Assembly: GCA_965644265.1 (NCBI GenBank)
Contig: OZ286466.1
Coordinates: 39,866,001-39,930,000, forward strand
Direction: 5' to 3'
Length of the DNA: 64,000 nt
Source: Glycera tridactyla
Lineage: Eukaryota
In this document: piece after piece, positions 1,868 through 44,224 of the stretch
Layout: every line of letters begins with the position of its first letter
Numbering within the stretch: position 1 is the first letter of the stretch
Made by a program: the position numbers and the translations under genes
Notes under the pieces: model-generated
What the model was told of the DNA's origin: nothing
The model's database searches: none
Seen by the model: the letters and a program-made list of their open reading frames with translations, nothing else

Positions 1868-2542
1868 CACAGGCGCGCGGATCGAGTTGCGAGTAGGGTA
1901 GTGAATGAGAGAAGGTGCTACACTCGGCGATCGGGGCTGGGCAGCTGATCGGACTTGTCCCAGTACAAGCTGGATTTCTTTGTTAAATGAGCAACCAAAA
2001 CGCCCCTTGTAGGATGAGACTGTAGAAAACAAATTTATCTACCTACATAACCAGTCAATAATATTCTGTGTCCATCCAATTCCATGTAAATTGACTCGGA
2101 GCAGGCAGATTTAATCTCAAATAGTTCATGAATCCAAGATGGCCGAATCCCTGGCATGCTACAAGAACCCCCCAGTGAACATGGGTGAGAGGGTACCAGG
2201 AGAATTTCGCATTGCATGCTGGTCCAAATCCAGAGTAAACATCCCATCACAAATTTCACACACACATTTCTTGAATGAAAACTTCAAGGTGCTGAGTCAA
2301 TACAGACCTGGTGGTTGCAAGAAGGGTTATAGGAACATAATTTCTTCAAGATGGCTGACGGGTAAACACGGCCGTGAATGTTCCGGGGAATTACAAGCTG
2401 TGTAACTACGTAATGGATAACTGTACGATATTGTAAATGGACTGATACACACATGAGATACCTGGGAACAGGGGATTAATTGGATTATACATGTTCAAGA
2501 TATACGAAATGGGATATGGAGTAATTATATCACACAATAATT

Positions 2543-3385
2543 TTGGAAGTAGACATGTCGAACATAGAGTGTGGACAGGTTGGTACACCGGTAGTCGCTG
2601 ACACTGGAAATAAACGTGTTCTAAGTCCCGATAGCGATACGTCTATTTTAGAAGACAAAAGAACAAAACTAAGCACGTCAATGAATCAGGCTACGAAAGA
2701 CGATTCTTTTGATGATATTCACGAATCATTTAATGAATCAGAACTGAATATGGTCTCCACACAGAAGACAATGGATACTATAAGTCAATTAGAAACAACG
2801 TCGAGTGAATCAAGCCATTTTGAATCGTTTGCCATACAAAGCGAGGAAGAGGGTGACGAGTCGGAGTGCCCAGACCGAGAAGTTACGAAAACAGCCGAAG
2901 ATGATACGGGGCTTTCAATAGCAGGAATCGCAACACGTGCTCGCCACAAAAACACGTGTGTCTCCGATGATGAAGAAATCGTTCCAAATGCTCAGAATAA
3001 AGTGACAACAAATGCATCATGCTATATCCCCGATGAATCTGTCACTATTAAACCTGGTGGTGATCATGGTGAAACACTACCTTCAAGTGGTGTATCACAG
3101 GATATAGTAATGATAAAATCTACGACAAATGGTGATGAGTATTTGGCAGCAGCGGCAAGTGTTGAGGTTCATGCTACAACTCCCGAGACAGCTTTGGAAT
3201 TGAGTATAAAGGTGGGAGTAAATGCCTACTTGGAGTCTAATGCCTTCAGTAGAATAATCTCAGACAAGGTACAATATCATTTATCCCAAAGCATTATCCC
3301 AGTGGGTAGCGAAAAACACGAAATTGAAACACTGAGTATCTACAGAGACATGCTTATCAACATGTTCAACAAAATATGGAACTAA
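2543..3385 (+). CDS. LINE ORF1 N-terminal part (acidic, Ser/Thr-rich, probably disordered; 280 aa)
   Basis: Long ORF that overlaps the start of the RRM-bearing ORF by 10 nt. No recognisable domain. Confidence 0.6.
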   Translation: MEVDMSNIECGQVGTPVVADTGNKRVLSPDSDTSILEDKRTKLSTSMNQATKDDSFDDIHESFNESELNMVSTQKTMDTISQLETTSSESSHFESFAIQSEEEGDESECPDREVTKTAEDDTGLSIAGIATRARHKNTCVSDDEEIVPNAQNKVTTNASCYIPDESVTIKPGGDHGETLPSSGVSQDIVMIKSTTNGDEYLAAAASVEVHATTPETALELSIKVGVNAYLESNAFSRIISDKVQYHLSQSIIPVGSEKHEIETLSIYRDMLINMFNKIWN

Positions 3386-4593
3386 TTATACCAGAGGTTG
3401 AGCATCGCTTCAAGACAGACATGGAGAATTACGTAGAGACCTCTGTAAATCACAGCACAATGCGCTGTAAGGCTGAACTTCTCACTAAACATCAGCAACT
3501 AGTACAAGTGGTAGAAAAACAACAAAAAGAAATCAAGACTCTTGGAACCGAACTCGCCATGATGTCAGCATCTGTTAACCAAGAACTGATTGAACTAAAG
3601 AGGGATATTGCCACCATAGAGACACCAACGTATGGTGATGAAGGGTTTATGGATAATGTTCGAGAAGCCCTAGGTCAGATATCACTGTTAGTGAGTGAAC
3701 ACCATGATCGCATCGACCAGACAGAATATGATGTTGACGCATTGCAGAAAATTGAAAGAATGAATGTTGTCATAATAGAGGGTCTACCTGTGAACAAGAA
3801 CACCACCTTACATGATCATGTGATTGAATTCTTCAACAAGGAAACTGATCTAAAACTAAGAGTGGGTGATATATGTCAAGTTGTCAGGTATGGGCCTGTG
3901 CGTGAAAATCGACCACTTTCAGTAAAAATCAGGGCATCATCTACTGAACTTAGTAGACAAATTTTGAAGCAGAAAGCAAAATTGAGGGGAACAGAATATT
4001 TCTTAAGGGAGCAACTCACTCCCTGGGAGGCTAGGCTTTTCCATTCTGCTAAAGATGCCAAAGGCAAAGGGCTGCTAAGTAATGTATGGACGCAGGATGG
4101 GAGAGTTTTTGTCTCACATGGAAGGGAGTTGCCAAAGATTTTGTTAACTAATGACCAATCACTCTTGAGTGCAATAAATAAGGGAGGTCATAACACCAAT
4201 GAGCTGACAGTAAGGGATGAGGCACAAGCCCTTGAGAAAGAAACTACAGAGAATGATACTACAAAAGCACATGATGCTACTCTAACCACTGATCATAAAA
4301 TAGTGGAGGGAGAAAATTCTGAATCTGTAAAGGATATAAAAGATATAGCAATTTCACTGAAGAATATTAGAACTCGCATAGCAGGAAAAGAGAAAACTAA
4401 TGCAGAAAATAAATCAAAGAATAAGAAAACTAAAGGAATAGAATCTTATTTCCTAGATCCAGAAGAATTTCCTAGCCTAGTACAAAATCCAGGAGAGGAG
4501 CATGTAAATAGTTCGGTATTACGGGCTGATGACTTTCGAACAGTTCGCGGAAGGCGAACCCGCGGTTCAAATCGCGGTGTACGTAAGCAATAA
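3376..4593 (+). CDS. LINE ORF1 protein: coiled coil + RRM + CTD (L1/Crack-type RNA-binding ORF1p), basic tail
   Basis: Heptad-rich helix (LVQVVEKQQKEIKTLGTEL...), then NVVIIEGLP...RYG...RPLSVKI and FLREQLTPWEARLF...VWTQDGRVFV, the pattern typical of non-LTR ORF1p. Confidence 0.85.
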   Translation: MELIIPEVEHRFKTDMENYVETSVNHSTMRCKAELLTKHQQLVQVVEKQQKEIKTLGTELAMMSASVNQELIELKRDIATIETPTYGDEGFMDNVREALGQISLLVSEHHDRIDQTEYDVDALQKIERMNVVIIEGLPVNKNTTLHDHVIEFFNKETDLKLRVGDICQVVRYGPVRENRPLSVKIRASSTELSRQILKQKAKLRGTEYFLREQLTPWEARLFHSAKDAKGKGLLSNVWTQDGRVFVSHGRELPKILLTNDQSLLSAINKGGHNTNELTVRDEAQALEKETTENDTTKAHDATLTTDHKIVEGENSESVKDIKDIAISLKNIRTRIAGKEKTNAENKSKNKKTKGIESYFLDPEEFPSLVQNPGEEHVNSSVLRADDFRTVRGRRTRGSNRGVRKQ

Positions 4594-5122
4594 CTTCGAA
4601 CAGACCACCACCGGAAATGAAAGCGGACAGACTATTAGATTATTTCTTCGTAGTTTTCTCTACATTATGGCATCCACGACACGTTATATCACCGAACGCA
4701 GGCATACAGATCGTCTCCAGGGCTTCGTCAATGTAGTAAGTCATTGTGGCAGCATGTATAGTGCGATTATTGCTCGTATGAGAGGAATTAGTTACGGTCA
4801 AACACGTGGCGCGCACACGTGCGCGTGTCACCTTATATTTCTCTAGTAAATACAGCTACACATGCCGGAAGAACGAGAGTAACTAGGAACCTTTAACCAT
4901 ATCATACACAATGATAACACTTGAAGTCATATTTAATCTAGACTAACTGTTACTGGATTGATATCGAGAATGAAAATTGATATAATACATGCCATACACT
5001 ATAATGTAGACATGCATTAGCACAACTTAGATTTTTCGTATATTAATAATTACCGTCTCTTCTAGATGTAAAAATGACTACGTACCTTAATATTGTTAAA
5101 TAAGATTTCTAAATAGACCCAT

Positions 5123-6034
5123 TTGATTTCCTTGCAGAAAAACCTGAACGAAGCTGAGCATATAGCCAGGGAACGCGTGAATCTGGTATCAGCAACTTGC
5201 CCAGTAACGCGCAGGCACCACCTACTTGACAACTATGACCATCCGGATGTTCTCATACTAGGAAGCAGTCATGTTTGGAGAATGGGTGATTTTGTGAAAA
5301 AAGAGCTACCAGATACCTCTAGTATTAAACCTCTACTGCTAGAATGGCACTACTATGGCATCAGTGGTGCGGGATGGGGTACCTTTGCCAATGAAATAAC
5401 TGGTGTCTTTAGCAAGACTAGACATGGACTGAAGAAGCTACATCGATATGGGAATACCTTGTCAAAGCTCAAGAAACTGCAGATAAATCCAAACTACATA
5501 GTGCTTGTTCTGGGATCGAATGACATTGATCGCTACAATCAAAAAGTGAACAATTTGACAAATAGAACCAGGGATCCTAGAATTTTGAAGAGGGAGCTTA
5601 GAGCCCTGAGAATTACAAATTTTAATAAGATTACACATGATGTTATTACAGTGCTTGCACTACTGAGAAAGGAGTTTCCAGAATCCAAACTGTGTACAAT
5701 ACCTATCACATGGAGACCAGTATGGGGAGATGAGGCCAGAGCCTTGGCAGTGTGGGTGGATAACTTTATTCGTAAAAGACAAAATCCACCTATGTCTATG
5801 CATACTGTCAAAGTTCTCAATACTCACCAATTATTTGTGAAAACACACAAGACAAACAACACAACACAAAATTTGCAATCTCTTCCTATTGGTAGAAGAA
5901 AACCATGCAAACACGGAGATATTCTGTGTGGAATGTTCCAACCAGATAGGATTCACTTGAACAAGTATGGAAATCAGGGCCTTGCAATATCGATAATTGG
6001 TCAAATATTGGGTAACTGGTTTCCTATGATCTGA
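5123..6034 (+). CDS. SGNH/GDSL-family esterase (true start uncertain; probable exon starting at 5138)
   Basis: All four SGNH blocks are present in order: LILGSSH (5261-5272), GISG, VLGSND and PDRIHLN (DxxH). The first in-frame ATG (5282) lies after block I. Confidence 0.85.
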   Translation: MISLQKNLNEAEHIARERVNLVSATCPVTRRHHLLDNYDHPDVLILGSSHVWRMGDFVKKELPDTSSIKPLLLEWHYYGISGAGWGTFANEITGVFSKTRHGLKKLHRYGNTLSKLKKLQINPNYIVLVLGSNDIDRYNQKVNNLTNRTRDPRILKRELRALRITNFNKITHDVITVLALLRKEFPESKLCTIPITWRPVWGDEARALAVWVDNFIRKRQNPPMSMHTVKVLNTHQLFVKTHKTNNTTQNLQSLPIGRRKPCKHGDILCGMFQPDRIHLNKYGNQGLAISIIGQILGNWFPMI

Positions 6035-7601
6035 CTGCCTTCTCTCTCTATGTGGTAGATTACCAAACATGTATACTTCATTCCAACTTCTGTGTGATTG
6101 TAGTGTAATCAGATGTTCCAAGTCGACCAACAATGAAGATGTATAGAGATGAGTATTTTCTTCGGACCAAACTTGTAACCATCATTGTAAGTGACCTTTA
6201 AACCTTCCAGGTGTGGTTATGGTGTAGAGCTGCATGAGTACTTTGTTTCCAGGTTGTAATGGAGAATTGATGCAAGAAGTGTACTTCGAATGATCTATAC
6301 AATATTAAAAGTTAAATTTGAAAGGTCAATTGAAATAGATGTGTGATAACAATAGTGGGTGTAATCACAGACTAAGTTATATCCAGCATGTGTTTTGAAT
6401 GTTTTCTTCCTTCTAGACTATTGACTAGGACTTACCCAGTAACTGACATAGAGAACTGATATTTGACCGAGTTGCTGAGGTCCCGTATTGTGTAATAGAA
6501 TGCCTGAAAATGAGATTTTAGAGTAAATTCCATTTTATTTTGAAAATCTTCCATCCACTGGTATACTGGTACTCCTACATACATGCTGTGGTCTACTATG
6601 TCTTATTTATGGATGATGAATATGATAGACCAAATTTAACTGATTGAAAGCACATCCACTCACTGACACTCCTATATACATACTGTGGTCTGCTGGGTTT
6701 GAGTGGTGGTGCTGGAAATACTGGGATAATAGAACCCATTGATCATTGAAAACTTTGGTTAAAGTATACAGGTATTCAAGAATGAGATGATTATAACCAC
6801 AAAGATTATTGGAATGTACAAATGATTTACTAGAACTTGGTATATGCTAGTAGTGTGTCTCTCAAGGAGTATGATGAGCACTTTCAAAAATGATATGGAT
6901 ACATATAAACTGATGTTAATGTGATAACCAAATCCATAGTAAATAGACTTGAAATATGAATATTAAATTGAGAGGAAGCTATGGATGTTTTGTCTAATGA
7001 TCTGTTTTATGACCTGTCTAAATTCTGCTGAGAGAATGAATGTGACTACGATGCCAACATGAGCCGTTTTTCACGCCGTTTTTCACTTTTGATTTATTTT
7101 TCGATATTTTTGGTACTTTTGATATTTTTATTTTTGTGAAAAATCTTACTTTATTTTCCTTTTTGCAGTTGATTTACATTGCTCGCTGGCATTTTTCCTC
7201 ACTATTATTTTGTATTTTGTATTTTGACCTTTCTCAGTTTTCTATCTAGTATCTAGCCGCTGTTTTTGTTTCAGGATGTTGGATCTGAGAATAACTTGTT
7301 TGCTTATTTTGATGTCCTTATGTGATTTTCGAGCATATTGTGCCAATTAGAATCCCAATTAGAACCCATGTACCTCATGTGGTTAATTAGATTATTTTAA
7401 AAATTAGTTAAAATGAATTCTTGTGTAATCAAGTATGTACCCCCATGAACAGGGATACTACCTAGCACAGAGTCTATTCCCCTGGAAGTCATTCTTGGAG
7501 CATATTCATTTCGTGGCCATCTTGTCTTGTATTAGAGCTAATATAATTAGCGAAATTTATCAAATTAATCTATTCTCTCTTTCTTTTACTAACGATATAT
7601 A

Positions 7602-10529
7602 ATGCCTGGACAAACCACAACAAAGCAACCACCTAAAGAATCAATTAAAAGATCTACAATAGAATTGAATACGACATGTGATATATCAAAATTTAAAGGA
7701 TTTAAGATAGCACATCTGAACATTCGTAGTATTATGAATAAAATTGATGATATTAGGCTAATCCTTCTACAATCCAATATAGATGTATTGGTACTGTCTG
7801 AAACCTTTTTAACTAGTATTATTAATGATTCACAAGTTCAGATTCCTGGATATTATACCATAAGAGCTGATAGAACTGCTGCAAGCATGAGGCAAAAAGG
7901 AGGAGGAATAATCGCTTATATTAGAAATGATAGAATAGTAGAACTTGTTGAAAATTCTGATATTTGCAATGTTGACATAGAAGCACTTTGGACCAAAATT
8001 GTCCTACCTGATACAAGGCCTATATTTTTAGGAATGGTCTATAGACCACCTCACGGCAATCCTTCTGTATTTATGAATTGGGTAGAGGACTCAGTGGTGG
8101 ATTTGAGTATGCAAAGAGCGTGCGATCAGATAATTATAGGTGATGTGAATATTGATTTTTCGGATGGTAAAATTAGTAAAAATTACAAAAATTGTTTGAA
8201 ATCTTGTAATTTATCCCAGCTAATTGATAAATACACAAGGATATCCACTCTTACCAGCTCTATTATTGATCATGTTATTGTAAATGATGAATGCATGTAC
8301 CACCAACATGGTGTTCTTGAAACGGGTCTATCCGACCATAGCATGGTCATTGTTGCTAGGAAAAAAATTCAGCAACCAAGAAATGATGAATTTGTTTATT
8401 TCAAAGATTACAAAAATACAAACTTTGATGCAGTAAGTGAGGATATAATAAATCATGATTGGACAGATTTCTACAGAGCAGAAGATACAGATGAATGTAC
8501 TCATTTATTTCATGAGGCAATAAACAATATTTTGGAAAAACATATACCAATGAAAAGACATAGAGTCACAGCCAATTGGCCAAAATGGTTGAATGGTGAA
8601 TATTTGGACATGGTAAAAGAAAGGCAAAAAGCTAGTAAGAACTATAGATTGTCAAAAACTACAGAAAATGAGCAGCTAAAAAAGGAGATAGTGAAGAAAT
8701 GTAAAAAATTAAAACGAAACCTTCAACGGCAGTTTATAGAAGATTCTTTTACCCAACATCTAGATAACCCCAAGAAAATGTGGCAAACCATTAATAGTTT
8801 TTGGGGTAAAGACCAATCTGCAAATAGAATATTGAAAATAGGGGAAGAATTTGAAAATGATAAAATTGCAAATAAACTCAATACATTTTTTAGCAATATA
8901 GGGGTGGACCTTAGTAGAAAAATACCAGACGATGGGATAGATCCTCTTGAGGATTTTCCAATTTCAAATCATGATAATTTGATCCTGAAGGAGACATGTG
9001 AAGAATGGGTATGTAAATTGATATCAAAATTATCTCCTTCAAAATCAGGCAGAGATGATGGTCTTCCAGTGAAAATTGTTAAATCTTGTGCAACTGCATT
9101 ATCTCCTTTGCTAACGCGTATATTTAATTTAAGTATCTCAACAGGAGTTTTTCCAACATATTGGAAGATTGCCACGATTATTCCGTTGTATAAAGAAGGT
9201 TCTCGCTCTGTAGAAGCTAATTATCGTCCTATTAGCCTGTTAAGTACTGTTAGCAAATTATTAGAAAAAGTCGTACATCAACAGGTTGCTGGATTTTTTG
9301 AATGCCATGGTCTACTGTGTCGAGAACAATCAGGTTTCAGGGGAGGGTGCTCCACTGGCACATGTTTATTAGAGTTTTTAGATAAGATATACTACAATAT
9401 TGAAAACGGCCTGGCCAGTGGGGTGCTCTTCTTGGATTTAAAGAAGGCTTTCGACACGGTGGACCATGCTATTCTATTAAGTAAATTAAAATCATATGGT
9501 GGTGATGACATATGTGTAAATTGGTTTAAAAGTTATTTGTATGATAGAAGATGTCAGGTGAAAGTTAATAATGTGATGTCATCTGAACATTATACGCGCT
9601 GCGGTGTACCTCAGGGTTCGATACTGGGCCCTCTCCTGTTCACGATATATGTGAACGATGTTGCACATCACATGAGAGGGTCCAGTATCAGCCTATATGC
9701 AGATGACACTGCGATACTAGTGAGTGATCATGATCCAAAAAATCTCAAAGCAAAATTAACAAATTCTCTAGTGGATGTGAGCAAATGGCTGCAACGAAAT
9801 AAGTTGAGCTTGAATTTAAAGAAAACCAAAGTTATCTGTTTTGGAACAAGAACACATTTACAAAATTGTAATTTTAATATAGTTATTAATAATTATGAAA
9901 TTGAAAAGGTGGATCACTTCAAGTATTTAGGTGTCATATTAGATAGTTCACTAAAATTTTCACAACATGCTGAACATATGAGGACAAAAACATTGGGAAG
10001 GGTGGGTGTACTTGGGAGACTCAGGGGTGTATTGAATAAAAATACAACACTGATGCTCTACAAGTCACTCATTCTTCCCATTTTCGATTATTGTGATATC
10101 GTCTATGACAGCCTAGGGGTGGCGGACTCTATGAAATTGCAAAGAGTGCAAAATAAGGCCTTCAGAATCATAACTATGAGCAATTGGACAAGGAGTAGTA
10201 ATTCTACACATGAAGATTTGGATATGCCTTTCCTGGACTGCCGTAGACGATATCACACTATAGTACATGCAAATAATATTATAATGAATCAAGTACCGTC
10301 ACAGTATGAGAAACTATGTACTTTGTCAGTCCCTGCCCATGATTATGAGACACGATATCACGAGAAACCGTATATTCAAATGCAATTTTCATCTAGAAAG
10401 CAAACAGAAGGATCTTTTAGATATAGAGCTTGTAGGTATTGGAATGAGTGTGTCAACAAGTGTGCTGATTTTGGACCGTTGGAATCAGAACAGTTTAAAA
10501 TTAAGCTGAAAAATTTCATGCATATTTGA
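7602..10529 (+). CDS. LINE ORF2: APE endonuclease + reverse transcriptase (975 aa, uninterrupted)
   Basis: APE motifs HLNIRS, LSETFL, YRPP, GDVN, IDHV and SDH. RT motifs NYRPISLL, QSGFR, FLDLKKAFDTVDH, GVPQGSILGPLLF, YADD and YLGV; C-terminal SFRYRACRYWN. Confidence 0.97.
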   Translation: MPGQTTTKQPPKESIKRSTIELNTTCDISKFKGFKIAHLNIRSIMNKIDDIRLILLQSNIDVLVLSETFLTSIINDSQVQIPGYYTIRADRTAASMRQKGGGIIAYIRNDRIVELVENSDICNVDIEALWTKIVLPDTRPIFLGMVYRPPHGNPSVFMNWVEDSVVDLSMQRACDQIIIGDVNIDFSDGKISKNYKNCLKSCNLSQLIDKYTRISTLTSSIIDHVIVNDECMYHQHGVLETGLSDHSMVIVARKKIQQPRNDEFVYFKDYKNTNFDAVSEDIINHDWTDFYRAEDTDECTHLFHEAINNILEKHIPMKRHRVTANWPKWLNGEYLDMVKERQKASKNYRLSKTTENEQLKKEIVKKCKKLKRNLQRQFIEDSFTQHLDNPKKMWQTINSFWGKDQSANRILKIGEEFENDKIANKLNTFFSNIGVDLSRKIPDDGIDPLEDFPISNHDNLILKETCEEWVCKLISKLSPSKSGRDDGLPVKIVKSCATALSPLLTRIFNLSISTGVFPTYWKIATIIPLYKEGSRSVEANYRPISLLSTVSKLLEKVVHQQVAGFFECHGLLCREQSGFRGGCSTGTCLLEFLDKIYYNIENGLASGVLFLDLKKAFDTVDHAILLSKLKSYGGDDICVNWFKSYLYDRRCQVKVNNVMSSEHYTRCGVPQGSILGPLLFTIYVNDVAHHMRGSSISLYADDTAILVSDHDPKNLKAKLTNSLVDVSKWLQRNKLSLNLKKTKVICFGTRTHLQNCNFNIVINNYEIEKVDHFKYLGVILDSSLKFSQHAEHMRTKTLGRVGVLGRLRGVLNKNTTLMLYKSLILPIFDYCDIVYDSLGVADSMKLQRVQNKAFRIITMSNWTRSSNSTHEDLDMPFLDCRRRYHTIVHANNIIMNQVPSQYEKLCTLSVPAHDYETRYHEKPYIQMQFSSRKQTEGSFRYRACRYWNECVNKCADFGPLESEQFKIKLKNFMHI

Positions 10530-10558
10530 TTGATATCGAAAGACCCTATGCTTGGATT

Positions 10559-10612
10559 TTGAATTTGATTTTGAATTTGTTTTTGAATTTGTTTTTGAAT
10601 TTGTTCTTGAAT
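10559..10612 (+). repeat. 12-bp tandem repeat (ttgaatttgttt x4.5) in the LINE 3' UTR
   Basis: Read directly from the sequence. Confidence 0.85.
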
Positions 10613-11619
10613 CCTAAAAAGGCTATACTTAATAATAATAATAGCAAGGTGATGTGTCAAACAGATTTTGGGAAATTTATATTTAATTCTTTCTTCTCTC
10701 ACTGTTTACTTCCTCTTCTACATCTCTCTCTTCTTTCTCTCACCAAAAGGAGCCTTATTGTTGTACAAGTGGAATAGATATCGGTAGCGTTCAACTTGTA
10801 TTATTTTGTTCAATATGAATGACTCAATTATTTCCACTTTGTTACATTTTTCTCTTTAATTTGATCGTTATTTGTGATTATGGTAATGGTGTTTGTCGAA
10901 CCGGAAACGCATCACTGATTGATGTAACTGATTACTGACAAACTGAAATAAAGAAATATCAATCAATCAATTGAGTGAACGATTCCTGTTTTAATTCATC
11001 TAATCAAAGTTGAAACTGGGTGTGAATGTGTCAAGGAGAAAATGCGCGGGACACGTATCCCGGCCGAGTGTGGCACCTTCTCATTTTACTATCTTCTACC
11101 GCGATCATATTTCCGACCGCCTGTGGTGTAACACTTACACAACATATTTATTGATCAGCTGTTGATTCAGCCCATTTCATGAGCCTCAACCATGAATGAT
11201 GCTCATGAGCTAAAATACACATGTGGGCATCTGGTAGTAACCTCACAAATCCCAGAGAGCCAAGACTTAACATGGATTAGTTACTGCGCAAATAGCAGAG
11301 GATTATCGCCCTACTTTGTTCATTTGGGTCACAAGGTTGTACGTTGAGAATACATATTATCGCTCATATCAAATGTCTCATCTTAGCACACAATCGATAC
11401 CGGGCAGTTGCTTCGAATTCTAACGCCCACATGATTTCGTGGCAGAGAGCTACTCACCTAGCAGAGTATAGCCGGATCTGTGTGATAGGTTTGGGAAAAA
11501 GCGGAGAAAGAAGTCGAACCTTCAACCCGAAACTTCGAAACAACGCCATGTTGGTTTTATAGTAAGTAAGTGTTGACGAGATACGCCAGATGGCGACACC
11601 AACTCGTGGTTACCATATA

Positions 11620-40256: not shown

Positions 40257-42946
40257 TTAACCTTCATCCTCGTCACGTAGTAATCCTAACTTCCGCCCTA
40301 CCCATTTACACTTCTCCTTCACTTCTTCTTGCATCAGATTGAAACACATAGCTAGAAGAGATAATCCAAAGGCTAACCACAAGGCACACAATACAAGTTT
40401 TTTGTGAGAGGACCACTCCTTCATATCCGTGCCTGGAACAATATCACCAAAACCTATAGTACTCAATGTAATGAAACAGAAATAGGACCCTGTCAGATAA
40501 TCCCAATCTTCCCAGAGTGTGAACAAGACTGATCCGGCGAAGATGTATCCTGCGATGATGATAAGACAGATGGAGATGGGAACTGTCACTTTACCCTCAT
40601 CCTCCTCCTCCTCGTAATCAAAGGGGTCCTCGGCAAAGCCCAGTGGTGCCCCATCAGGGTAATCCAGCAGTTCTATGTCGTAGGAGGATTCAGTGCCGAC
40701 GTTGATAGCAATAGATTCAGGCTGGAACTTGACTACACTGCCCTCTTCTGTCCTATCAGTATCACTAGTAGGGCCACCGGGCTCCTCTAGCAAGTCATCG
40801 GCGAATGACTCACTCTTAGCAGTCACAAATGACTCTGCTGAGTCGTGTCTATCAGCGTCAGTCAGTCGACGTGTCTCCTCCGACGATTCTGATGAAGGAT
40901 TACGTCGCGTCGACGTCAGCCTCCATTTCTTACTACCACCGTCTCTACGTCGGAGTGATTTGCCAAAATTATGGTCACGCTTACCCGAACGTTTCGCAGA
41001 CCGCTGACGCGATAATCCGCCATGAGGTTTATCCGATTCCACAAATTCTTTCCGTCTACTGGGACTTCTATCATTGTGAACATCTTTGTGTTTTTTATCC
41101 TCTGAGCTCGGACTACGATCTTTCAATATACTTTTCTTATTTTCGTCCTTATTCGAACTTTTTTCATTGGATGCTTGATCCTTTTTGGGAGTCTTGCTCC
41201 GTTCCCGCGCCAATGCGGGATTCTCTTTTGCTGCACTTTCTACCTTTAACGTGTCCTTCTCCTTCGGGGATTTCGGCACATCCTTTGCTCTATCCTGCTC
41301 ACTGGAACTATCCTTTGATTTGTCATCGGATTTCTCACGTGAAGTGGATCTATCTGTGCCTTTATCCACGTGTAACTTCTCCTTATCCTTATTTTCTGTT
41401 TTATCCTTATCACTGGACCTTCCTCTCCTGTCGAGTTTCTTATCCATTGCTTTCTTATCCTTTTCGGTGTCCTTTTTCTCCTTATCCTTTTTATCCCGCT
41501 CAGCAGCGTCCTTTTTGTCTTTGTCTTTTTTCTCCTTATCACTGTCTTTTTTCTCCTTGTCCTTTTTCTCCTTGTCACTGTCTCTTTTATCCTTCTCTTT
41601 TTTCTCTTTATCACTGTCTTTTTTGTCTTTCTTATCTTTCTCCTTATCTTTCTTTTCTTTGTCTTTCTTGTCTTTGTCCTTGCTCGGTTTTTCTTTTTCA
41701 TCCGAGCTTTTCCCGCTATCTTTCCCTTTGGAGTCTTTGTGCAGTTTCTTATCTTTATCACTACCTTTTCCTTTCTCCCTACTCTTACTTCTATCTTTCT
41801 CTTTCCTACTTTTAGATCTACTTCTATCTTTCTCCCTCTCTTTCTCCCTGTCCTTATGTCTGATTGTTTTACGTTTTGTAGACTTGTCATGAAAATCTTT
41901 ATGTTTTTCAGTAGATGCTTTATCCCTGGACTTTCGTTCACCACTAACACCTTTCTGTACACTGGCGGACATAGGGGATATGGTAGCTTCTGCAGGAAGG
42001 AAGACTTCATCGTCACTATATGTGTCATCATCATCAATGATGGCAGTCTCTCTACAATCTGCTAATCCGTCAAGATTACTCAGGATTGTATCACTGTTAG
42101 GAGTCCGAGGCCCACTTGGTGAGTCATCATCAATGACGTCATCCAAGATGTCCGTCTCTCTTATATCAGTGTCACTTTCAAAATCGCTATCCAATATGGC
42201 CGTTTCTTTAATATCCTCATCACTATCCAAGATGGCTGTCTCTCGATCGGCCGAGCTAGGAACATTTGGGTTGGTGAGTAAAGAAGTGGGCCGACCTATG
42301 GGACTTGAAGTCCGAGGCGATTCAAGTCGGCCCTTTGGACGCGGCGATATATCAAGGGGACTACTCGGCCTACTACTCTCCTGTGCACTACTCGGCTGAC
42401 TCCCATCCTGAGAATTCGTCGGCCGATTTTTGTTGTGTTTATTAACGTCAGTTTTATTTGCTGGCGTTGTTTTACAACCATTTTTACTTTTACACTCCTC
42501 ATCCGAGGTACCTCCGGCCGCCTGCTCGATATCCTCGCAGTTCTGCGGCATTTCGTGGTCTGTATTCGTATCCTCGTCATCGCGACCGATGCTTTTCTCC
42601 TCGGCGTCGTCAACGACCTCCGTCAAACTGCGACACTCTGGATTCAGGTCGTCCTCGTCGTCAACATAGTATGTTGTATCAACCACCGCCGGCCGTAATA
42701 CACTGTTGCGCTGTGCTGCTTGCTCGCGTTTCCGCTTGAGGCGCTTGCGTTCGCGCTCCTTGTTTCGCTCACACTTTTGACAGCAGCACAGATCACAGCA
42801 GATTCGCTTGTAGAAAAGTCGGAAGCAGTCAGCCAGGAAGTTACCGATGTTGGAGAGATAGAGGAATGTAAGAGGAATGCCAACAAGAGCGTAAACAATG
42901 GTCACTAGCCGGCCCCAGGAAGTCTTTGGTGCTATATGGCCATAAC
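40257..42946 (-). CDS. Terminal coding exon of a two-pore-domain potassium channel (K2P; invertebrate TWK-7/TWK-18, TRESK-like architecture): end of P1, M2, giant loop, M3, P2, M4
   Basis: GYGHIAPKTSWGRLVTIVYALVGIPLTFLYLSNIG (P1-M2), VPISICLIIIAGYIFAGSVLF (M3), GSYFCFITLSTIGFGDIVPG (P2) and M4 LWLAFGLSLLAMCFNLMQEEV. The exon begins at a polypyrimidine+CAG acceptor that splits the first Gly of GYG (phase 1). The first 30 aa of the listed ORF are intronic. Confidence 0.95.
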
Positions 42947-42972
42947 CTGCAACAGAGGGGAGAGACAGGCAA
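42947..42972 (-). promoter_or_regulatory. Splice acceptor of the K2P terminal exon
   Basis: Minus strand ttgcctgtctctcccctctgttgcag|GTTATGGC. Confidence 0.9.
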
Positions 42973-44224
42973 TCAGAAAATCTGCACAAATAGGGCTTGA
43001 ACCAAAGGCAGAAAAAAGCAGCTAAAATCAGAAACAAAATTGATCATAATTGGGAACAACCCAAATACAAGCTATGAAGTCTCACCTACAAAAACAAATT
43101 GTTCTCATCAGCATATAGAATGAAAGATGAAGCGCCGCATGAAGATGATGTGATGTCATGTGATAAGTGATTCGTCCTTTGGACAGGTCCTTTGGATATG
43201 AAAATATCTCCAGAATCACGAGCATGTGCTATATCATATACACGTTTCAACACATTCACTCGTATGTGAGTGAGTCTCTAAAGTTCCTTCAACACCACAT
43301 CAACGTGAGAACAAATCTCCGATCAGTCAATAATATATAATGGTGTGATGGTATCCCTGAACAGATTGAACCAGACTGCTTTTTAAATGGGACAGTCTCA
43401 ATTGGTATGCAGTCTTTTCATGATAACATTTTCAGGGTCCGGAGACCAAAATACACCAATCAATTTTAAAGGAATTCTGATGATGAAAGGACGAAAGGGC
43501 CAACAATAACTCTGGCAAGAGTATTTGGCTGATATCATGCTAGGAACCAGAAAAATGCCGAATTGGTTTCCGGCGTATTGACAAGGAGGGAGTGGTATCA
43601 GCTGCGATAGTAAATCCGGCAATGACAAATATGAATATAGGTGGAAAATATTATCCCCCTTTTTGACAAATACAAGCTATGAAGTCTCACCAACAAAAAC
43701 AGATTGTTGTCATTAGCATATAGAAATACTGACAAAAATCTTTGCCTCAGATTTCTTCTTTTCCAGCTGGCGGAAAGCTTCTCACTCCTAATTCCCGAAT
43801 AGACGTGACCTACAAACCAAAATGATACTGTATATTTCAGCCAGATATGACTCTTCATAGAAACATTTCTAGAAGCAAAGGGTTTGTAGGGTATGAATAT
43901 ATTTCGAGATGTGTCGTTGAAANNNNNNNNNNNNNNNNNNNNNNNNNNNNNNNNNNNNNNNNNNNNNNNNNNNNNNNNNNNNNNNNNNNNNNNNNNNNNN
44001 NNNNNNNNNNNNNNNNNNNNNNNNNNNNNNNNNNNNNNNNNNNNNNNNNNNNNNNNNNNNNNNNNNNNNNNNNNNNNNNNNNNNNNNNNNNNNNNNNNNN
44101 NNNNNNNNNNNNNNNNNNNNNNCACACCCTCACACCCAAACAAACAAACACATATATATGTGTGAGTATTCGTATCACACACACACATATACACACACAC
44201 TCAACACATACACTCATCACACCT

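Follow-up and report, generated by a model that had tools for sequence, protein, structure and literature searches.

In this study, which was based on a 64,000-nucleotide stretch of the Glycera tridactyla genome (contig OZ286466.1, positions 39,866,001 to 39,930,000, hereafter the window) and on the relatives of one of its elements elsewhere in that genome, we describe a long interspersed nuclear element (LINE) that carries a gene for an SGNH esterase between its open reading frames ORF1 and ORF2, the latter encoding an apurinic/apyrimidinic (AP) endonuclease and a reverse transcriptase (RT). Hundreds of LINE copies in the genome carry this middle gene, and its intron was found in every complete copy that was examined. 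The three-gene architecture is real, general in the clade and under selection. LINEs, which are copied through RNA, are expected to lose introns. The reading that we favour, with some reserve, is that the middle gene consists of two exons, has its own internal promoter and is spliced, while the RNA that is copied is the full-length, intron-bearing one. It is also, by a little, probable that these copies represent a clade of "complex" LINEs that is old, still active and as yet undescribed, in which an accessory SGNH enzyme is expressed from an internal promoter and through an obligatory spliceosomal intron, the latter having survived all of the reverse transcription since the gene was captured.

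Structure and conservation of the esterase gene

All of the coordinates refer to the window and the forward strand unless stated otherwise. Exon 1 of the esterase gene (4667..4735; an ATG and 22 codons, MASTTRYITERRHTDRLQGFVNV) is recognised by its recurrence across copies and by a ratio of nonsynonymous to synonymous substitutions (dN/dS) of 0.043, while the 402-nt phase 0 GT-AG intron (4736..5137) was placed by donor rank and acceptor conservation. Exon 2 (5138..6034) encodes the 298 aa of an SGNH hydrolase and belongs to an open SGNH frame at 5117-6034. The donor reads TA/GTAAGT at 4736 and the acceptor, tttgatttccttgcAG directly before 5138, is in phase 0; the predicted spliced product from ATG 4667 has 23+298 = 321 aa. 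The first AUG of exon 2, at 5282, lies downstream of the GSSH block (5261-5272). A first-pass annotation of this DNA had placed the ORF1 stop (4593), the donors at 4736 and 4583, the acceptor at 5138 and the AUG at 5282, all of them correctly, and its junction 4735^5138 with ATG 4667 is supported by the sequence, the splice sites being conserved among copies. The other donor that it had offered, AC/GTAAGC at 4583 with ATG 4529 (18+298 = 316 aa), fared worse, as it occurs in only three of the ten close copies that were compared, namely in the window itself and the two copies nearest to it.

Searching the genome at the protein level gave 132 esterase matches, all of which have open frames of 253-347 aa, and none is fused to ORF1, which bears out the earlier view of a stand-alone SGNH gene within a LINE. 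The copies that were analysed numbered 113 (the window, 12 close and 100 of 118 distant ones) and represent 42 lineages with 38-90% amino acid identity; L044 and L045 (degraded) and L042 (no GSSH motif) were excluded, and 18 of the 118 distant matches also lie outside this set. In 109 of the 113 copies there is an AG, in phase 0, at a distance of exactly 41 codons upstream of the GSSH Gly. The tract before it is T-rich, and at each of the 12 positions upstream of the acceptor an AG occurs in 0-1 of the 113 copies. This conservation is far beyond chance. Moreover, TNYAG was found exactly 123 nt upstream in 314 of the 432 matches to the GSSHVWR motif genome-wide, compared to 0 in a reversed control. 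The acceptor is TAG in many copies, and since this is a stop, the exon 2 frame has no simple upstream extension there. The signals of the intron are of the U2 type: a GT donor consensus, a pyrimidine-rich AG-free tract, YAG and restoration of the frame. Its length ranges from 224 to 672 nt over 37 lineages with all three mod-3 classes present, and the donor of exon 1 was the top-scoring of about 45 GT sites in 27 of these lineages, as scored with a donor matrix.

Common to the subfamilies after the ORF1 stop is an ATG with 22 codons that end in G-F/Y-x-N-x, followed by GT. The search rule for exon 1, which comprised the last five codons and the GT and left the ATG outside, was fixed beforehand and recovered exon 1 in 49 of 66 new (held-out) copies. 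An ATG at -69 (or -72) with an open frame is present in 93 of the 113 copies. The third codon position is degenerate (entropy of 1.09, 0.94 and 1.63 by codon position), and there are no stops in frame, whereas the two other frames contain stops, one of them in 35 and the other in 31 of 37 lineages. Additionally, 38 loci were hand-picked from 150 ORF1 matches, avoiding the loci that had been gathered previously: the esterase was present in 37, the acceptor in 36, an intact exon 1 in 35 and ORF2 in 38, and the lone locus without the esterase has a deletion that extends into ORF2. The linkage of the esterase to ORF1 and ORF2 in other copies, on which the earlier interpretation depended, is thus confirmed. 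In 43 of the 113 copies all three frames are intact and separate. Reading on from exon 1 into the intron leads to a stop within 3-54 codons in 37 of 37 lineages, and a Met ahead of the Ser block of exon 2 was found in just 13 of 42 lineages, at scattered positions. Judged from these frames, read-through, frameshifting and a start in exon 2 are excluded as general routes of expression. The intron interior cannot be aligned between lineages with saturated synonymous sites, in which the donor, the acceptor and exon 1 are kept.

Two side observations concern the arrangement of the copies. L274-L275 (G000:C29:54946000-54965999) is a tandem array of at least four units of 4843 bp (two were compared and were identical), all of which contain the esterase and a 5'-truncated ORF1 but lack ORF2. 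Near-identical copies of one subfamily are clustered at G000:C34:87.4-91.1 Mb and C29:13.5-14.4 Mb, which may reflect segmental duplication or a preference for certain targets.

Retention of the intron

A degenerate pattern for the intron-less form gave 0 matches in the whole genome among the 432 motif matches (23 by chance and about 410 real), and the same pattern would catch 87 of 93 known copies had their intron been lost. It follows that the RNA that was reverse transcribed was unspliced, at least in the approximately 410 motif-bearing copies, which agrees with the proposal of the first-pass annotation that an unspliced RNA serves as the retrotransposition template. In the mechanism that we propose, the full-length RNA that serves as the template for new copies would escape splicing and keep the intron, and promoter elements inside the intron would mean that a spliced element loses the expression of its esterase. 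If promoter elements do lie in the intron, the loss of the esterase from an intron-less element would explain the long retention. Copies whose 5' truncation falls at precise positions near the acceptor (-1, -4, -12, -24 and -72) were also considered as traces of the branch point. They do not mark it; the truncation sample had been selected for exon 2. The contigs of run X1, whose RNA nature is a guess (share 0.05) and which were used solely for empty-site joints, cover the esterase thinly and have no 4735^5138 joint, which counts neither way.

Selection and phylogeny

Among the compared parts of the LINE, pooled dN/dS was lowest in exon 1 (0.043), followed by the ORF1 core (0.075), exon 2 (0.083) and ORF2 (0.109), as obtained from 9 of 15 pairs, which were the unsaturated ones and are not fully independent. 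Both esterase exons are under purifying selection by this comparison of dN/dS across copies, which the first-pass annotation had suggested. When the esterase and ORF2 trees were compared, 17 of 20 supported esterase splits recurred and two conflicted inside one subclade. In L063, L074, L092, L100, L084 and L089, the ORF2 tree conflicts with the ORF1 and esterase trees, which suggests recombination between the 5' and 3' halves.

Esterase and ORF1 proteins

The catalytic residues in the window are encoded at 5267-5269 (Ser), 5519-5521 (Asn), 5945-5947 (Asp) and 5954-5956 (His). SGNH blocks I (Ser), II (Gly), III (Asn) and V (Asp-x-x-His) are all present, and S44, N128, D270 and H273 are invariant in 42 of 42 lineages, as is G74, while G77 is found in 41. 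The Pfam match of exon 2 to Lipase_GDSL (E 8.8e-5) is slightly short of the cut-off. Its structural model (pLDDT, a per-residue confidence measure, of 90) has an SGNH fold; Foldseek matched it to PAF-AH (E 1e-5), and against 1bwp the Z-score was 15.1 with a root-mean-square deviation of 3.2 over 178 aligned residues, so the fold resembles PAF-AH and the GDSL esterases. The predicted spliced products of 37 lineages have 314-337 aa and an isoelectric point of about 9.9. No signal or membrane segment was found in any of these 37 products (maximum 19-residue hydropathy of 1.58; N-terminal 12-residue maximum of 1.06), and the description of the protein as "env-like" was not upheld. The esterase would be pictured as an enzyme of about 320 aa that is basic and soluble. 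If the analogy with the ZfL2-1 esterase holds, it may be active as a small-acyl esterase, bind to membranes and help the ribonucleoprotein of the element in the cell that expresses the copy.

ORF1 (2555..4593) is of the L1-ORF1p type, with a coiled coil, an RNA recognition motif (RRM) plus a CTD (C-terminal domain), as judged from a predicted structure and Foldseek. Compared to the close copies L031 and L034, in which ORF1 is intact and has 681 aa, the window ORF1 has lost 7 nt near 3332, and its frame is broken. The AlphaFold model of the ORF1 core (pLDDT 84.5) has the coiled coil, a single RRM and the CTD, i.e., type II (transposase-22), and its top ten Foldseek matches were all human L1 ORF1p (2yko/2ykp/2ykq, best E 4.7e-6). 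Apart from Baculo_FP_2nd, which was matched by 21 of 31 members, Pfam gave just a match to Bacillus_HBL (E 0.027), and this was dismissed as a coiled-coil artefact. The type IV (esterase) class of ORF1 was rejected, since the esterase frame is separate in all copies and ORF1 has an RRM.

Expression of the esterase

The case for an internal promoter comes from base composition and motifs. A CpG-rich stretch at 4467..4935, which runs from the end of ORF1 across exon 1 into the 5' part of the intron, is the predicted promoter; its observed/expected CpG ratio is 1.4, compared to 0.35 in the ORF1 body, exon 2 and the spacer. Pooled over 37 lineages, the ratio is 1.3-1.5 from -200 to +100 of the donor and 0.3-0.6 in the coding bodies. 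The stretch contains TCGAAC (4536 and 4596), CCGGAA (4611) and CACGTG (4803 and 4816). Among the 37 lineages, CATGCG was found upstream in 18, CCGGAA in 13 and TCGAAC in 28, while CACGTG occurs in the introns of 17, compared to 1.2 expected. The GCATGCG-type motif is found outside ORF1, mainly 54-70 nt upstream of the ATG. Moreover, 39 extra ATGs were seen 45-90 nt upstream compared to 21 expected, and 17 within 45 nt compared to 27 expected, a distribution that is as expected if transcription starts between those ATGs and ATG 4667. An internal promoter thus seems a fairly probable driver of the esterase, and its mRNA would, with similar probability, start 0-60 nt upstream of ATG 4667.

Several points weigh against the model of an internally promoted, spliced gene. 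That the intron is spliced, which we hold to be highly probable, is argued from conservation alone, and the promoter-zone motifs are NRF1-, ETS- and E-box-like by presumption. Of 28 TCGAAC cases, 22 share a single codon phase of ORF1, so part of its recurrence may be protein conservation, and the N-terminal third of ORF1 has a CpG ratio of 0.8-1.1, which weakens the argument from CpG content. In 57 of 60 copies, just 23-84 nt separate the ORF1 stop from the ATG, as in termination-reinitiation. The spacer after the esterase has no conserved poly(A) signal (AATAAA was seen 32 times compared to 50 expected, and not at all in the window). The absence of dead, 5'-truncated spliced copies is left unexplained by a promoter in the intron. 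Finally, the proposed substrate and role of the esterase come from analogy only.

The short distance between stop and ATG also speaks for another explanation, in which there is no internal promoter and a spliced RNA from the 5' end carries both ORF1 and the esterase, with ribosomes reinitiating at ATG 4667. Human L1 uses reinitiation for ORF2, nearly all lineages have a purine at -3, and a single promoter would suffice. On the other hand, 46 of 60 copies hold another ATG in the gap, mostly within the GCATGCG motif and in varying frames, splicing of the full-length RNA should give intron-less elements, of which none was found, and the CpG island and the intron motifs are not accounted for; we regard this explanation as possible, though rather unlikely. 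Far less probable is an env-style scheme, after the retrovirus-like strategy of the first-pass annotation, in which a donor in the 5' leader would be joined to an acceptor before exon 1 to give a doubly spliced subgenomic RNA. GTAAAC does follow the start motif directly in many 5' untranslated regions (UTRs), and a little upstream of ATG 4667 the window shows a TAG within a run of pyrimidines. However, the 5' motif lacks a GT in several lineages, and a conserved acceptor ahead of exon 1 is missing: among the AGs of the 250 nt that precede the ATG, the best has a median score of 3.7, with 2 of 37 lineages reaching 8 (controls 2.1 and 3.7), whereas the true intron acceptor scores 11.0, with 25 of 37 reaching 8.

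It is similarly improbable, if not slightly more so, that there is no present splicing and that the signals are relics of the captured gene, exon 2 being translated alone or by recoding. An intron position that is older than the element, as indicated by the homolog L277 (see below), and that hence came with the captured gene would suit this explanation. Yet the donor, acceptor and exon 1 are conserved despite saturated synonymous sites and an unalignable intron interior, dN/dS is lower in exon 1 than elsewhere in the element, and exon 2 has no conserved start, with neither read-through nor a constant frameshift being possible. Almost no credence can be given to the explanation that a separate mobile or host gene lies in this copy by chance, or that an ORF1-esterase fusion was broken. 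Homologs elsewhere are found on short contigs with no RT in view, which would speak for it, but the esterase lies between ORF1 and ORF2 in all but one of the ORF1-selected loci, the trees are largely congruent and more than a third of the copies (the 43 above) have three intact, separate frames. Within this genome, the frame, locus and tree data refute it.

Extent and other features of the element

The full-length LINE in the window is of the APE type and spans 8.6 kb (2347..10971), as delimited by end-to-end alignment with L031 (94%) and L034 (96%). The X1 contigs join 2337^10972, which is the empty site of the host repeat. The 5' UTR (2347..2554) begins with CAAGATGGC, a start motif that recurs 188-237 nt upstream of the ORF1 ATG in 29 lineages and which we take to be a YY1-like initiator motif. 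ORF2 (7602..10529) is intact with 975 aa and matches RVT_1 (E 1.2e-39) and Exo_endo_phos (E 2.5e-5) in Pfam. The 3' end (10947..10971) consists of AATAAA and an (ATCA)n tail, and relatives have AATAAAG with a short-repeat or A-rich tail. Copies of the family are dispersed, with a fixed 3' tail, 5' truncations and empty sites and without long terminal repeats (LTRs), as is characteristic of LINEs. A Penelope-like element was rejected, as the endonuclease of ORF2 is of the AP type (not GIY-YIG) and the ends are of the LINE type, with no pseudo-LTRs. Membership of the CR1 group would fit by ORF1 type and tail, as judged from descriptions of that group; the homologs of ORF2 bear no clade names.

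The spacer between the esterase and ORF2 contains a 25-nt motif, CTCCTAC..GC(T/A)GTGGTC (6572..6594, with a looser second copy at 6669-6690), the core of which was found in 25 of 42 lineages, often in two to three copies about 100 nt apart and 140-900 nt past the esterase stop. It is a candidate export, termination or protein-binding element. A search of seven loci against Rfam gave a single chance match far under the threshold and none for this motif. An inverted repeat with 6-bp arms and a 3-nt centre, GCTAAT-ata-ATTAGC (7537..7551), lies 50 nt upstream of the ORF2 start codon. It sits 30-100 nt ahead of that ATG in 27 of 42 lineages and is followed by a TCAT-rich leader. In most other lineages it reads GCTAAG-nnn-CTTAGC, one pair being altered on both sides. 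The spacers contain 14-94 ATGs, and ORF2 may therefore need internal initiation or its own transcript; no conserved second intron and no conserved long ORF were found in them. Outside the LINE, a CGAT-rich palindromic repeat array with direct and inverted copies flanks it at 1-1870, and a 928-aa open frame at 40260-43043 on the reverse strand is probably a host-gene exon, which starts with what we presume to be a potassium-channel-like pore motif.

Homologs outside the genome and origin of the intron

A full HMMER search found 39 homologs of the esterase with 22-43% identity, and none of the 20 homolog clusters that were looked up has a name. Word-index protein searches with exon 2 and with the alignment A1 gave no matches, nor did P0001 against metagenomes or A1 against viral contigs; A1 against metagenomes gave two short contigs with no RT on either. 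L277, from another dataset and with 20% identity, shares the TAG at the acceptor codon and has 27 codons in its ATG exon and a 511-nt intron; its donor is the best of 50, and its upstream ORF ends in an RGG-rich tail. In L276, the AG is one base off (phase 2) and the matching donor ranks third. In 4 of 14 homologs that were long enough for the comparison, a Gln stands at the acceptor codon with just 1-5 residues ahead of it (binomial P ~0.001). Given the intron of L277 at this codon and the Gln pattern, the intron appears to have arrived with the captured gene. The contigs of these outside homologs are too short to show an RT. P0004, P0013, P0024 and P0036 have a Met 22-27 codons ahead of the junction site, which is the predicted length of exon 1, and may be spliced or intron-less forms. 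The exon 1 profile had no match among the outside homologs.

Implications

A sense-strand coding intron that has been kept over at least 42 lineages implies that a LINE is able to route one RNA past the spliceosome and to splice another. If the copies do represent such a complex clade, the element must control the splicing or export of its full-length RNA, possibly via the spacer motifs, like complex retroviruses. Moreover, with esterase and RNA chaperone kept apart in this LINE, the role of a retroelement esterase becomes directly testable: the gene, its intron or its catalytic serine can be altered with ORF1 and ORF2 untouched, and the 43 copies with all three frames intact are available for this. 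As exon 2 lacks a usable start codon, ORF-based transposon annotation would overlook such genes.

Comparison with known systems

In the full-text literature that was covered, no LINE with a separate intron-containing esterase gene was found; Repbase, Dfam and most subscription papers were outside this scope and may hold prior descriptions. The comparisons that follow draw on parts of the cited papers, and the parts of three others (PMC11203168, PMC12477816, PMC9977147) had nothing bearing on an esterase-LINE layout. Texim genes on fish Helitrons are similarly intron-containing SGNH genes carried by a transposon, but Helitrons move as DNA and introns are no obstacle to them; it was on account of their introns that texim genes were argued not to be parts of retrotransposons (PMC4021074). 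Bdelloid LTR retrotransposons and Terminons have also captured a stand-alone GDSL/SGNH ORF3 with intact catalytic residues, although these elements are of the LTR or Penelope type, the ORF3 follows pol and, in the part of the paper considered, no intron in its coding sequence is described (PMC5408684). In foamy virus, as in the model proposed here, a promoter within a structural gene drives accessory genes and unspliced RNA is the template; that virus is, however, a retrovirus with LTRs, and its promoter was shown experimentally, whereas ours is predicted (PMC3185757). The intron also survives retrotransposition in Penelope-like elements, and in Penelope and Chlamys-3 it overlaps the internal promoter, but these elements have GIY-YIG, pseudo-LTRs and introns in the 5' UTR of the RT gene (PMC8557442). 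Such intron retention was termed highly unusual among retroelements (PMC8557442).

Among LINEs, those of the CR1 group with a type IIA ORF1 (L2 subgroups 3 and 7 and CR1 subgroup 1, PMC4120745; Daphne, PMC13343379) share the L1-like ORF1, the APE-RT ORF2 and an AATAAA with a short-repeat tail. Unlike the element described here, they are given two ORFs only, with no esterase or intron for those subgroups in the sections considered (PMC4120745, PMC13343379), and the string "splic" is absent from the texts of both papers. The known LINE esterases are domains of ORF1ps that "lack defined RNA binding domains" (PMC3905857). The ZfL2-1-type (type IV) ORF1p of CR1, L2 and RTEX resembles the present case in having an SGNH domain with intact catalytic residues upstream of ORF2 and in being strongly basic (PMC3905857, PMC4120745, PMC13343379), but its esterase of about 165 aa lies inside ORF1p, whereas here a separate, intron-split gene with a core of about 260 aa stands beside a complete L1-type ORF1 (PMC3905857). 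The tie to the ZfL2-1 esterase that the first-pass annotation had drawn has no detectable counterpart in sequence: when solved structures were searched with a profile built from the 42 lineages, that esterase, whose transposon-specific positions are H191 and S228, did not appear at E <= 10, nor was it among the listed fold matches, and an independent capture may apply. Surveys of 448 Jockey-group elements and of the vertebrate CR1 group treat the esterase and transposase-22 as alternative ORF1 types (PMC4120745, PMC13343379). The published esterase ORF1s stand in place of an RNA-binding ORF1, whereas in the LINE described here the esterase accompanies one.

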